From a virus: a DNA stretch of 64,000 nt. A model generated the notes under the pieces. It was not told the DNA's origin. It saw nothing but the letters and a program-made list of their open reading frames with translations, and did no database searches. Positions within the stretch are counted from its first letter, which is position 1. Each line of letters begins with the position of its first letter. Position numbers and translations under genes: made by a program. Positions 13,726 through 47,988 of the stretch are shown piece after piece. The stretch lies in IMG/VR virus record IMGVR_UViG_3300044970_002549, positions 1 through 64,000 of that record; one strand, 5' to 3'.

Positions 13726-13802
13726 TGGTAGGGGGACCTGGACTCGAACCAGGGACCGCCGAGATATAAGCTCGGTGCTCTAACCGACTGAGCTATCCCC
13801 CC
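13726..13802 (-). tRNA. tRNA-Ile(UAU), CCA encoded
   Basis: GGGGGGATAGCTCAGTCGGTTAGAGCA-CCGAG-CTTATAT-CTCGG-CGGTC-CCTGG-TTCGAGT-CCAGG-TCCCCCT-ACCA; complete cloverleaf, anticodon TAT, discriminator A73. Confidence 0.92.
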
Positions 13803-18450: not shown

Positions 18451-18479
18451 TTGACGATGTGATACCTAGGCCTTATGGT
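18451..18479 (+). promoter_or_regulatory. Sigma70-type early promoter
   Basis: TTGACG-17-TATGGT, then leader hairpin GCGCCACTTGGCGT and TAGTAGGAGG RBS. Confidence 0.65.
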
Positions 18480-24903: not shown

Positions 24904-25380
24904 ATGGGATACTACGTTAAGGGGACTGGTAATGTACTAATCTCAAAGGAGAATCTTGCTGCGGCCTACGATGCGCTGATGGCACTCCAAGACGCACCAG
25001 ACGAGTCCAAGAGCGGCGGAGCGTGGAGCGGTGGAACCTACACGCAGCGTTGGTATTCTTGGATGCCGGCTGACTTGCGATCGCTTCCAGATACGAAGGC
25101 CGTATTTGACGAACTTGGATTTGATACGGTATACCAAGAGAACGGCGACCTTCTTATTATCGCGTACGACAACAAGACAGGCCAAGAGGAGTTGTTCTTT
25201 GCCGCAGCAGCTCCGTTCATCACCACGAATAGCGAGATGTATTGGGAAGGTGAGGACGGCCTTCTTTATAAGTGGGAGTTCGTTGATGGCAAGATGATTT
25301 GGCTTGACGGATACGCCAACTACGGGAACGCACGCGAATACGATCTCGACACAGGCTTTCGTCAATGGCGAAGCATTTGA
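24904..25380 (+). CDS. Hypothetical early protein
   Basis: GAGGAG RBS; YDNKTGQEELF..AAPF...WEGEDG. Confidence 0.65.
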   Translation: MGYYVKGTGNVLISKENLAAAYDALMALQDAPDESKSGGAWSGGTYTQRWYSWMPADLRSLPDTKAVFDELGFDTVYQENGDLLIIAYDNKTGQEELFFAAAAPFITTNSEMYWEGEDGLLYKWEFVDGKMIWLDGYANYGNAREYDLDTGFRQWRSI

Positions 25381-25405
25381 CTTCCGCCAAGAAGTCTGCG
25401 ACAAT
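25377..25405 (+). promoter_or_regulatory. Sigma70-type promoter (extended -10)
   Basis: TTGACT-17-GACAAT with TGn. Confidence 0.55.
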
Positions 25406-25466
25406 CCATAAGCGAGGCCCATCGTCGGCGCAGTCGGCGGCTTCGCGCAACAAGAGGAGAGGAACA

Positions 25467-25961
25467 ATGAGGAAGCGCAAGGGAAACTCTATCGCAGAGT
25501 CCGGAGTATGGAACGCCTACGAGTACCAGATGAAGCGAACGCTCATAGACAAGAAAACTCTCTCGCTGCGAGTGGAGTCGCCGCGTGAGTTGGCTAATGT
25601 GTTCCGCGAGTTCGCGGACGCGGAACTGAGCGAATCGCTATTTGTCGTATCGTTCGGCGGCCGCAACAATGTGCTTGGTATCCAACGCCTCTATCAAGGA
25701 ACGGCCACTGGCACTTCGGTATCGGTCGGGGAGATTCTGCGCTCTGCGCTCCTGATGGGGGCGGTAGGGTTCGCTCTGGTTCACAATCACCCTTCGGGCG
25801 ATGAGGCCGCATCAGAGGAAGATGTGAAACTCACCAAAGATGTTGAGTCTGCTGCGCGGCTGATGGACATGATTTTCCTTGACCACTTGGTCGTAGGGTT
25901 CGCGGGTGCGTACACTTCCATCAGGTCGCAGAAGCCAGACATTTTCTTGCGGCCTAACTAG
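25467..25961 (+). CDS. radC: RadC-like JAB/MPN domain protein
   Basis: SPREL..ESLFVV...GTATGTSVSVGEILRSAL..A..FALVHNHPSG..ASEED..LT...LDHLVVG; lacks the RadC N-terminal HhH. Confidence 0.88.
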   Translation: MRKRKGNSIAESGVWNAYEYQMKRTLIDKKTLSLRVESPRELANVFREFADAELSESLFVVSFGGRNNVLGIQRLYQGTATGTSVSVGEILRSALLMGAVGFALVHNHPSGDEAASEEDVKLTKDVESAARLMDMIFLDHLVVGFAGAYTSIRSQKPDIFLRPN

Positions 25962-25965
25962 CAAC

Positions 25966-26046
25966 GGCCTAGCTCGGTGGCTCCTCCCACCGATTAGGCC
26001 TAACCCTCCCCGCCGGTGGCTCCTCCCATCGGCGGGGACTTTCTTT
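25966..26046 (+). ncRNA. Two hairpins with anti-Shine-Dalgarno CUCCUC(CC) loops (cuckoo-like); second hairpin doubles as terminator
   Basis: Direct repeat CGGTGGCTCCTCCCA(C/T)CG, each copy centred in a long stem; T-rich tail after the second. Confidence 0.5.
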
Positions 26047-26114
26047 GTCCGCAGCTTGATACGGCCTTGCTCGTTTTGTTTAGGTTTCTTATCCTTACCT
26101 TATCATTGGCTTAC

Positions 26115-26144
26115 TTGACAATGTGATACCCCGCACCCCATAAT
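26115..26144 (+). promoter_or_regulatory. Near-consensus sigma70 promoter driving a non-coding transcript
   Basis: TTGACA-18-CATAAT; no RBS-led ORF for about 420 nt downstream. Confidence 0.75.
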
Positions 26145-26150
26145 GAGTCT

Positions 26151-26510
26151 GTTGCCGTTGTGCGTACGCCTTCGGGGACTAGGTGAGTAGAGTTGGAACG
26201 ACGACCGCAGCCGAATAAGTGCGATAAGGTGTTCATGCGAGGTTGGCGAATACCGGAGCTGTAATAACAAAAGTCGCAGTATCGAACGAGTACCGAGCAT
26301 TGGCCAATACCGGTACAGAGGGAGATACGAAACGGCACGATAAGGGTTTAGGGGCGGCCACCGCCGCTTACTAAACAAGGGTCTAGCCGGAAGGTGTAGG
26401 ACTCCGCCGCAAGGTGATAGTCGTGGAGGCCACGGACGGCCAGAGTGGACGACGACTCGGTGGTGGTAAATCGTCTGGGGGGTTGAGCGGTGAAACGCTT
26501 GACTCCCCTT
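26151..26510 (+). ncRNA. Candidate large structured ncRNA (~360 nt), family unknown
   Basis: Own promoter, no ORF, many nested complementary segments, terminal hairpin at 26477-26508. Confidence 0.6.
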
Positions 26511-26527
26511 ACTCTATCTAGTAGGCT
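26499..26527 (+). promoter_or_regulatory. Sigma70-type promoter overlapping the ncRNA 3' hairpin
   Basis: TTGACT-17-TAGGCT, leader hairpin GTCGGGAGTTCCCGAT, AGCACAGGAGG RBS. Confidence 0.65.
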
Positions 26528-26568
26528 TGTGAAGTCGGGAGTTCCCGATTAGTAGCACAGGAGGAAGT

Positions 26569-26748
26569 ATGAACGAGCAGACAACTATCGAACACATTGA
26601 GGAGTGTGAGTCTGAACTCGGCGCACCACACGGCACGCCGAAGCTCCGCACCTACAAGACCGGTTGGAACGGCTATGAGATGGCCTATGAGGAGTCGCTG
26701 TACCTATGCGACGATTGCTATGAAGCGATGAGTCAGGAGGGAGTATGA
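26569..26748 (+). CDS. 59-aa acidic microprotein
   Basis: AGGAGG RBS; MNEQTTIEH...LCDDCY; ATGA overlap with the next gene. Confidence 0.6.
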   Translation: MNEQTTIEHIEECESELGAPHGTPKLRTYKTGWNGYEMAYEESLYLCDDCYEAMSQEGV

Positions 26749-27095
26749 GCAGACAAGACGCGGCCTTCTATACGCACACGCACGACGCAGAGGTTCTGTG
26801 GAGGCCAGAGGGCAGCAACCCAAAGGAAGTGCGCGTGTACCGAAATGGTGAAATGAGAATCAACTACACGGAGCCGTCAGGTGAAGTTGCCGTGCTTCGG
26901 TATACAGATGACCTAGATAGAAAGGGACTTGATACCGACGAGAAGCTGCGCGCAGCAGAGGAGTCTGGCCTGATCGAGTGGATAAATAACGCTTGGTTTG
27001 AGGTCGCGTCGGTTGATAATGAGGACGGAGAGATTGTTGATGGAATAGATGAGGCCATTGAGTATGCCAAGAAACTATTGGAGGAGGAAGTATGA
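26745..27095 (+). CDS. Hypothetical early protein
   Basis: SRQDAAFY...NGEMRI...WINNAWFE. Confidence 0.65.
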   Translation: MSRQDAAFYTHTHDAEVLWRPEGSNPKEVRVYRNGEMRINYTEPSGEVAVLRYTDDLDRKGLDTDEKLRAAEESGLIEWINNAWFEVASVDNEDGEIVDGIDEAIEYAKKLLEEEV

Positions 27096-46755: not shown

Positions 46756-47988
46756 ATGAGCGAACTTAACGAAAAGTTGCAGGAAGTGCAGAAGGGTCTG
46801 GATGACCTCGGCACTGCCCCGCACCTTGTTGGCCGTGTTGCCGACGAGAACCTCGATGTTGCCGAGGCCTATGCGACCCAGCGCGAACTTCGCAAGAAGT
46901 TCTCAAAGATGAGCCGCACTGAGCTTGGCGAGATCCTTGACATCCAGGCAGCCCGCGAAGGCGGGAAGCAGGCTTCTTCGGACGTTCTTAACCGCCTTGC
47001 GGTTGCGAACCCGAACATTGCCAAGCTTCTTGACTCGACGGGTGGCACGGCTCTTATCCGTCAGGACCTTGAGCCAATTCTTTACGCTTTGTTCGTGAAG
47101 AAGTTCCCATTCTTTGAGCGCCTCCGCAAGGAGCCTGCAAACGGCCTCGTGCATGCGTTCAATCAGCAGACCGCCTATGGCGATGCGGTGTTCCAGACTG
47201 AGACCGGAACGGTCACGGACGACACGAACACCTATAGCCGAGCAACGACCAACGTGGCCGTTCTCGCAACCCGCCGTGGCATTACGCTCAAGAGCCAGTT
47301 TGCGATCACGCAGGGCGGCGCTCCAGGGCAGCAGGGTCTTTCGACCGAGCTTGAGGGTGGCGTTGTTGCCATTGCCGCAAAGCTCCAGAAGACGCTCTTC
47401 CAGGGTAACGCTGACACTACGACGAACGCAGGTACGGCAACTGAGCTTGGCGCTTACGACGCTAACGGTTTCACCGGTCTCCGCAAGCTCCTCGGAGCAG
47501 GGACTGGAACGGCCCAGATCGTCAACAAGGGCACGGCTGCCTATCTCGCAACGATCAACAACAATGTTGCCAGCATTTTGAATGCCGGTGGCAACCCGTC
47601 AGCGATCCTTTGCTCGCCAACGGACTATGCTGGCCTGGTGAATGAGCTGACGAACCTCGTCCGCTATAACGCACCTGCCCAGACGGCCCAGAACGCCGGC
47701 GCGACCTTCGGGTCAGTCGTCACGGCTGCTGGTGAGCTCCCGATCCTTGCCGTCCCTGGTGACAGCATTGGGTCGTACACCCTTAGCTCGGTGGACTACC
47801 GCGATATGTACGTGGTAGACGAGTCAGTTTGGTCGATGCCTTACCTCGGTTCGGACTCGATCACTACGCTCGAAATTCCGGTTGGAACGAACGGTTCCCT
47901 TTCACGCCTTTACATCATGTACTGCATGTATGGTCTGGCGAGCAAGGCCAACAAGTTCAACGGGAAGATCCGCGTCACGGTCGCGTAA
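46756..47988 (+). CDS. Major capsid protein (HK97 fold)
   Basis: Follows protease/scaffold; 410 aa; ALIRQDLE, LFQGN, FTGLRK; strong codon bias; terminator follows. Confidence 0.88.
   Translation: MSELNEKLQEVQKGLDDLGTAPHLVGRVADENLDVAEAYATQRELRKKFSKMSRTELGEILDIQAAREGGKQASSDVLNRLAVANPNIAKLLDSTGGTALIRQDLEPILYALFVKKFPFFERLRKEPANGLVHAFNQQTAYGDAVFQTETGTVTDDTNTYSRATTNVAVLATRRGITLKSQFAITQGGAPGQQGLSTELEGGVVAIAAKLQKTLFQGNADTTTNAGTATELGAYDANGFTGLRKLLGAGTGTAQIVNKGTAAYLATINNNVASILNAGGNPSAILCSPTDYAGLVNELTNLVRYNAPAQTAQNAGATFGSVVTAAGELPILAVPGDSIGSYTLSSVDYRDMYVVDESVWSMPYLGSDSITTLEIPVGTNGSLSRLYIMYCMYGLASKANKFNGKIRVTVA

Follow-up and report, generated by a model that had tools for sequence, protein, structure and literature searches.

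The stretch analysed here (the window) covers positions 1-64,000 of an IMG/VR virus record that is 91,157 bp long and rated complete; it derives from a tailed phage that encodes a large terminase, a portal protein, a head protease and a major head protein. The major head protein (46756-47988) had no tblastn match among 50,697 GenBank phage records, which points to a lineage without a cultured relative, and no host could be inferred. The locus examined lies in a 607-nt gap that separates a RadC-like gene from a 59-aa open reading frame (ORF) at 26569 (Table 1), and GC skew reaches its highest value in the window at 26-28 kb. Between the radC stop codon and the promoter described below are two hairpins with CUCCUCCC loops (25942-26044), which gave sub-threshold Rfam matches to the alphaproteobacterial ar14 (29.1 bits against 58.8; E 0.002) and also to sX13, and the second of which also scores as a radC terminator.

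Within the gap, the near-consensus promoter claimed in an earlier note on this DNA is confirmed and ranks best of the 14 promoter-like sites in 17.5-36 kb; the transcription start is likely to fall near 26150. Every sequence motif quoted in that note was found in its place, and the element downstream of the promoter is divided below into a 5' module (RNA-1) and a 3' module (RNA-2). Direct repeats, ~11 nt apart and just upstream of the -35 hexamer, also precede the homologous promoter in relatives, including L002, a locus with RNA-1 but no RNA-2, and may represent an UP element or a regulator site. GATAAG, the reverse complement of CTTATC, recurs inside the RNA at 26223 and 26339; a pairing role for the repeats with it is doubtful, because L002 keeps them without RNA-2. 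The early promoters at 18451, 19878 and 26115 share TGATAC 3-4 bases past the -35, and the other promoters listed are without it.

Table 1. Features of the locus in window coordinates (helices and hairpins as predicted)
Feature	Position	Strand	Basis or remark
RadC-like JAB-domain gene	25365-25961		Pfam PF04002
CTTATC/CTTAC direct repeats	26086-26114	+	CTTATC at 26088 and 26099; CTTAC at 26094 and 26110
Sigma-70-like promoter TTGACA-18-CATAAT	26115-26144	+	11/12 consensus matches; ACTTGAC and TGATAC kept in all relatives
RNA-1 5' region	26146-26187	+	Palindrome GCGTACGC at 26162-26169, then conserved AGGUGAG at 26181-26187
5' strand of candidate long-range helix (UGCCGUU)	26153-26159	+	Complementary to 26331-26337
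RNA-1 core	26177-26335	+	Row of hairpins behind AGGUGAG; model R1 match
RNA-1 helix P2a	26196-99/26231-34	+	Model alignment
RNA-1 helix P2	26206-09/26220-23	+	Model alignment
RNA-1 helix P3	26246-49/26274-77	+	Model alignment
RNA-1 helix P4	26279-83/26324-28	+	Model alignment
RNA-1 helix P5	26290-95/26311-16	+	Model alignment
RNA-1 conserved single strands	26232-41; 26258-64; 26306-13	+	UUCAUGCGAG; GCUGUAA; AAUACCGG, respectively
RNA-2 four-way junction	26311-26443	+	Model R3; junction strands AUAAGG and GAUAGU
RNA-2 closing helix J	26336-39/26422-25	+	CACG/CGUG here, GACG/CGUC in relatives
RNA-2 helix H3	26346-51/26371-76; inner stem 26353-57/26361-65	+	
RNA-2 helix H4	26381-84/26399-402 and 26386-88/26393-95	+	GGAA loop 26389-92
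RNA-2 helix H5	26405-08/26413-16	+	GCAA loop 26409-12
RNA-2 helix H6	26428-31/26438-41	+	GGCC/GGCC
Possible extra hairpin GACGA/UCGUC	26448-26475	+	Window and L068 only; pairing probability 0.01; no comparative support
13-bp terminal hairpin (26477-89/26496-508) and tail	26477-26518	+	Pairing probability 0.99
Next promoter TTGACT-17-TAGGCT (59-aa ORF cassette)	26499-26527	+	-35 within 3' arm of the terminal hairpin

Known RNA families and coding potential

Comparison with Rfam 15, which the earlier note had suggested, matched no family in 26100-26530, either at the gathering score or at E up to 10, and in five relatives searched at E up to 1 no match covered the RNA-1 or RNA-2 bodies (a weak ctRNA_pGA1 match in L157, E 0.36, is confined to the 3' edge of RNA-2 and its terminator). 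ARAGORN found no tRNA or tmRNA at the RNA locus, the sole gene detected being a tRNA-Ile (anticodon TAT) at 13726-13802 on the minus strand. The earlier note, too, did not recognise the element as a tmRNA, RNase P, SRP or 6S RNA, or an intron. One stretch, AAUACCGGUGG, presumably resembles part of 16S rRNA, a likeness that we judged compatible with chance. Searches of cultured phages by blastn, with the window copy and with a copy of the long type found in relatives, gave nothing, and the RNA-1 motif pattern gave three chance matches in representative prokaryote genomes, all rejected by the covariance model. RNA-1 and RNA-2 appear to be two new families of previously undescribed structured RNA, with good support from the comparisons below.

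We also assessed whether the locus might instead be a protein gene on either strand, the candidates including a very small ORF following AGGUGAG and the antisense ORFs at 26103-26378 and 26111-26338. The element is spanned in full by one open antisense frame, and AGGUGAG followed by UUG looks like a ribosome-binding site. However, stop codons occur in every plus-strand frame of the region; the gap holds only short or antisense ORFs; and neither the two antisense nor two sense ORFs matched a Pfam family. Conservation at the protein level was confined to the 96%-identical L068 (other relatives gave tblastn E values of at least 0.005), so that the antisense ORFs, whose conservation as protein would by the terms of the earlier note have counted against an RNA, are not conserved beyond that closest copy. 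Moreover, close relatives carry 1- and 2-nt indels within the best-conserved blocks, the open antisense frames vary between relatives and are not maintained (their length reflects base composition, because the plus strand is purine-rich), and by inspection neither the frame nor the length of the small ORFs behind AGGUGAG is constant from clade to clade. We consider the probability of a protein gene here to be close to negligible.

Relatives of the element

Relatives were recovered through the neighbouring 116-aa protein, which identified 27 viral loci; nhmmer then located the 5'-most 260-280 nt of the element in the majority of these, in the same position between radC and a small ORF. A 66-nt block is ~80% identical among relatives, compared with 55-60% for the adjacent 116-aa protein, so the RNA is conserved above its neighbouring genes. 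A motif pattern drawn from the conserved blocks retrieved family members in 21 of 21 viral-contig matches, and in metagenomes 7 of 16 matches belonged to the family and 9 arose by chance. The four loci most remote in the initial protein search (L025-L028) had no large gap upstream of the 116-aa gene, and neither RNA model matched them. A whole-genome search with the RNA-1 model R1 returned a single RNA-1 copy; the corresponding search with the RNA-2 model R2 missed the known weak match in the window.

The copies fall into clades: the window with L068 (IMGVR_UViG_3300005805_001725); a short form, L002, which has the first half only; a long form, A, whose internal hairpin includes the next promoter; and a form, B, without that 70-nt piece. 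Between the window and L068, the cassette of the RNA and the 59-aa ORF is ~96% identical (26113-27095 compared), whereas the product of the next gene is only 53% identical, which indicates a recent exchange between otherwise diverged phages and means that low divergence alone is not evidence of selection.

Conserved folds of the two modules

For RNA-1, a model (R1) was built from the A and B clades only, without the window, and includes P2a, P2, P3 with an inner stem, P4, a GGAA/GGAA internal loop, P5 and P5b. R1 matched the window at 26177-26335 (46 bits, E 3e-11), and the full motif set of the module is present there (AGGUGAG, P2 with an A-rich loop, UUCAKGCGAG, GCUGNAA, and P4-P5 with AAUACCGG). 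Covariation within the A and B clades amounted to just 3 doubly changed pairs. Once the window clade and L002 were included, both sides had changed in 16 of the 32 pairs (shuffles gave 6.2 +/- 1.7 and slid partners 0-5), in an alignment that was fitted to the model and leans towards it. Covariation support for the RNA-1 structure is moderate because of that fitting, and less than for RNA-2. In the thermodynamic ensemble of the window copy, P5 reached a pairing probability of 0.96 and P4 0.5, with P2a, P2 and P3 near 0.

Other parts of RNA-1 vary more among phages. Relatives carry a 16-17-bp terminal hairpin with a GACG tip (GCGACGGC), built on several stem sequences with a constant tip in the relatives tested; it terminates RNA-1 in the L120 type (a broader RNA-1 family compared by eye only) and is absent from the window. 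All RNA-1 variants found share a palindrome of 6-12 nt, differing in sequence, in the 5' hairpin region (UCCUAGGA, UCUAGA, AUCCUAGGAU, GCGUACGC in the window and a 12-mer in L002), and the two symmetric substitutions that turn CCUAGG into UCUAGA leave it palindromic. Taken singly, the window palindrome is not significant (511 of 5000 shuffles), nor are the others except that of L002, where an ordinary hairpin is possible; self-pairing or oligomerisation through the palindrome may be viewed as a lead rather than a result.

The RNA-2 family has a 4-bp closing helix, junction strands of the AUAAGG and GAUAAG type and three enclosed hairpins, and the window copy conforms. From the A and B clades, RNAalifold independently arrived at a 4-bp GACG/CGUC helix closing three hairpins, and R2, built without the window, matched the window at 26316-26443 (30 bits). 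The junction-strand pattern brought in many further viral contigs, which after confirmation with R2 gave 25 distinct RNA-2 copies; a third model (R3), built from 22 relatives' copies and excluding both the window and L068, gave scores of 41.7 bits for the window (E 4e-11) and 47.1 bits for L068. Across the 25 distinct copies, 27 of the 32 pairs had changed on both sides (a count from an earlier, model-fitted alignment that leans towards the model), and the covariation score was 0.646, compared with 0.214 +/- 0.014 for shuffled alignments and at most 0.135 with slid partners. The closing helix itself shows a compensatory change between relatives and window (Table 1), and the corresponding GNRA loops in L068 are GAAA (H4) and GCAA (H5). 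Support from covariation, which the earlier note had put forward as a check on its structure, thus appears strong in the 3' domain and moderate in the 5' one, both on model-fitted alignments. In the two modules combined, paired positions contain 68 G-U cells against 17 A-C cells, from which it follows that the plus-strand RNA is the folded molecule.

One element of RNA-2 differs in the window. Relatives have a local, covarying 5' hairpin (H2) before the closing helix; this is missing from the window, which keeps only the H2 3' strand and a remnant of the loop, and in the model alignment the H2 pairs are unpaired in L068. The long-range helix of the earlier note (26153-59/26331-37) is complementary, and plausible because its 3' strand sits where relatives have the covarying H2 3' strand, but it shows no covariation and has a pairing probability of 0.00. 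Possibly, 26153-59 is the displaced 5' strand of H2, in which case RNA-1 would lie inside the H2 loop, an attractive but unproven idea.

Several other helices in the earlier note coincide with the conserved fold: GTACCG/CGGTAC is P5, GTTTAG/CTAAAC enclosing GGCGG/CCGCC is H3 with its inner stem, the GCC-GGAA-GGT hairpin is the tip of H4, CGCC-GCAA-GGTG is H5, and the terminal 13-bp hairpin, whose 3' arm bears the -35 of the next promoter, recurs in relatives. By contrast, the TGCGA/TCGCA, GGTGTTC/GAATACC and AGTCGT/ACGACT stems and the CAGCC/GGTTG pseudoknot are not retained, being either unconserved in relatives or in competition with conserved helices. Folding energy was unremarkable (z-score -2.05 on the plus strand and -1.66 on the minus strand), and the comparative fold of the window copy lies 19 kcal/mol above the computed minimum; the case therefore rests on comparison.

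At the 3' end, the terminal hairpin differs from that of L068 only by a U-G to C-G change. Its tail has too few U residues for a terminator scan, and homologous hairpins in relatives have clear U tracts; 26477-26518 is probably a terminator, perhaps a leaky one, and read-through into the next cassette is possible because a good U tract is missing. A hairpin 3' arm with the embedded -35 of the next promoter also joins RNA-1 to RNA-2 in long-type relatives (for example, L013:3300-3380).

Arrangement of the modules in other phages

The earlier note had taken the ~360 nt to be a single RNA family; instead, other phages carry two modules separately. In L120 and L118 (116-aa protein 44-45% identical), RNA-1 and RNA-2 are separate, with protein genes between them. 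The L120 arrangement was read closely: the 116-aa gene is followed by RNA-1, which extends from a promoter of its own to the GCGACGGC-tip hairpin with a U tract, after which two protein cassettes precede RNA-2, which runs from TTGACG-18-TATAAT to a terminator with a U tract. Such separate RNA genes are ~215-235 nt each. At other loci the order is reversed or the spacing between modules ranges from 0.3 to 2.3 kb, and in the B clade RNA-1 and RNA-2 are independently fused. No RNA-1 was seen within reach of approximately half of the RNA-2 loci, and L002 conversely has no RNA-2, so joint function is not obligatory. In eight loci, the gene directly upstream of RNA-2 encodes a ~100-aa protein (phrog_2267; L120:4237-4545, plus strand) with a weak, below-cut-off match to WYL_2 (Sm-like SH3; E 0.0066); this protein is a possible RNA-binding partner, and no homologue of it was detected in the window phage genome.

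These neighbourhoods bear on whether the element could be a cis-acting leader (a riboswitch, attenuator or antiterminator) controlling read-through into the downstream early genes. Such a role would suit its position on the same strand and directly upstream of the 59-aa ORF cassette, the weak U tract of a terminal hairpin that may leak, and a junction with conserved unpaired bases that is aptamer-like. However, the L120 modules are each flanked by their own promoter and terminator and adjoin different genes, and the neighbours of RNA-2 are a shuffled set of small early proteins among loci, so the modules are not the leader of a particular gene. In addition, the 59-aa cassette has its own promoter inside the hairpin, no alternative pairing between RNA-2 and the terminator was found by eye to be common to the window and its relatives, and no Rfam riboswitch matched. 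We regard a leader as decidedly unlikely.

A different reading, in which RNA-2 is an mRNA 3'-end element (a stabilising cap before the terminator, or a small RNA cleaved from a 3' untranslated region) and the window copy is displaced, draws on loci where RNA-2 starts 6-15 nt past a stop codon (L168, L164, L152, L156, L146, L149, L157 and L155). There are at least eight of these, always with a strong terminator; a -10-like hexamer overlaps the stop codon, no -35 is clear, and a covarying 5' hairpin (H1) precedes the model. Yet the hexamers over the stop codons leave a promoter possible even there, RNA-2 follows a promoter with no ORF in the window, in long-type relatives and in L120, and its conserved junction bases and three GNRA loops exceed what 3'-end protection needs. 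This alternative strikes us as unlikely, and a stand-alone RNA gene remains the preferred reading.

The window copy could also be a functionless recombination product, a broken joint of two RNA cassettes. Its RNA-1 is without the usual GACG-loop terminator hairpin, its RNA-2 is without the local H2, and the early region is mosaic, as the comparison with L068 illustrates. Against this, the fused form occurs in two contigs of different IMG/VR records, it is driven by the best promoter in the region, and a separate fusion exists in the B clade. Furthermore, the 13 differences from L068 within the RNA comprise 8 at positions unpaired in the model, 3 that keep a pair and 2, adjacent at the H3 tip, that break pairs, with no indels over 458 nt. 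A broken joint is, in our estimation, very unlikely.

Replication-origin transcripts, for example ColE1 RNA II and those of T4, offer another precedent, and the element might be a structured primer or R-loop RNA. The strong promoter, the absence of an ORF, the G-rich RNA, the GC-skew maximum and the direct repeats upstream would all be in keeping with this, but neither an AT-rich unwinding region nor an initiator gene was seen alongside. The modules also move independently among early cassettes, unlike a fixed origin, and each is bounded by a terminator, which makes an origin transcript highly improbable.

Discussion

We propose that 26115-26518 is one transcription unit, in which a near-consensus early promoter would make a ~360-nt non-coding RNA. 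This RNA would be a natural fusion of RNA-1 (a 5' palindrome region, AGGUGAG and hairpins P2-P5) with RNA-2 (a four-way junction with a 4-bp closing helix and GNRA-capped arms), followed by a further hairpin and the terminator. Both the coding tests and the relatives uphold the core of the earlier note, namely a structured, non-coding element that has a promoter of its own and ends in a hairpin. We consider this overall reading fairly probable; that confidence attaches mostly to a real, stand-alone, two-module structured RNA, the expression of which we infer from sequence, and little of it to the mode of action.

As to function, the early promoter and a design made up of helices, three GNRA loops and conserved junction bases suggest an RNA working by its shape, and the repeated adjacency of the modules and their two independent fusions suggest that they work together. 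At an early stage of infection, the modules would act in trans by virtue of their fold, binding one another or a protein of either the host or the phage; our best guess is an early-made RNA that serves in trans as a binding partner or a scaffold. Of the roles floated in the earlier note (decoy, scaffold or ribozyme), catalysis drew no support from any of the observations. A more specific scheme, in which RNA-1 and RNA-2 dock (for example, via the GNRA loops of RNA-2) and the complex dimerises through the RNA-1 palindrome to give an RNA-only or RNA-protein assembly in the first minutes, similar in kind to ROOL and GOLLD, seems rather unlikely in its full form; docking would explain at least two fusions. 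An antisense-type small RNA pairing with its own phage was also considered, and is ruled against by the near-chance complementarity of the RNA to its own phage genome (44 ten-mers, compared with ~31 expected).

Few phage structured RNAs have a known role, and most have been found beside tRNA genes or in prophages. GOLLD and ROOL, of ~580-800 nt, are often carried by phages and prophages. Like them, the RNAs described here are non-coding, phage-borne and richly structured, and the palindromic loop of RNA-1 would allow self-association; GOLLD, ROOL and OLE are described from cryo-EM as forming homo-oligomeric complexes (PMC12286853). Unlike GOLLD and ROOL, the present modules have no Rfam match, are ~150-235 nt long and sit among early promoter cassettes. 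A second point of comparison is the phi29 pRNA, a folded phage RNA made from an early promoter that assembles via covarying loop-loop pairing between copies. The RNAs at this locus differ from it in having no Rfam match at E up to 10 and no link to packaging, in a phage with an ordinary large terminase and portal, and whereas pRNA pairs by two different loops, RNA-1 would pair by a palindrome.

The cassette organisation has parallels of its own. In T4-type phages, PeSL (promoter-early stem-loop) cassettes reportedly combine an early promoter and a stem-loop with a small protein gene as cargo; the units described here are likewise self-contained promoter/stem-loop units shuffled among related phages, but with a structured RNA as cargo. 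They also resemble bacterial small RNAs, both 3'-UTR-derived and stand-alone, in their ~200-nt length, their intrinsic terminator and the location of some directly past a stop codon. They differ in what is conserved, which is helices, junction bases and GNRA loops and not an unpaired seed.

The locus thus places two RNA families among early takeover genes under a near-consensus promoter, split, adjacent or fused in different phages. This natural split-and-fuse series offers ready-made constructs for the question of joint action, and the palindrome offers a direct test of self-pairing. If these RNAs bind a host factor, they would amount to an RNA-based means of takeover or counter-defence in a lineage of phages without a cultured relative.
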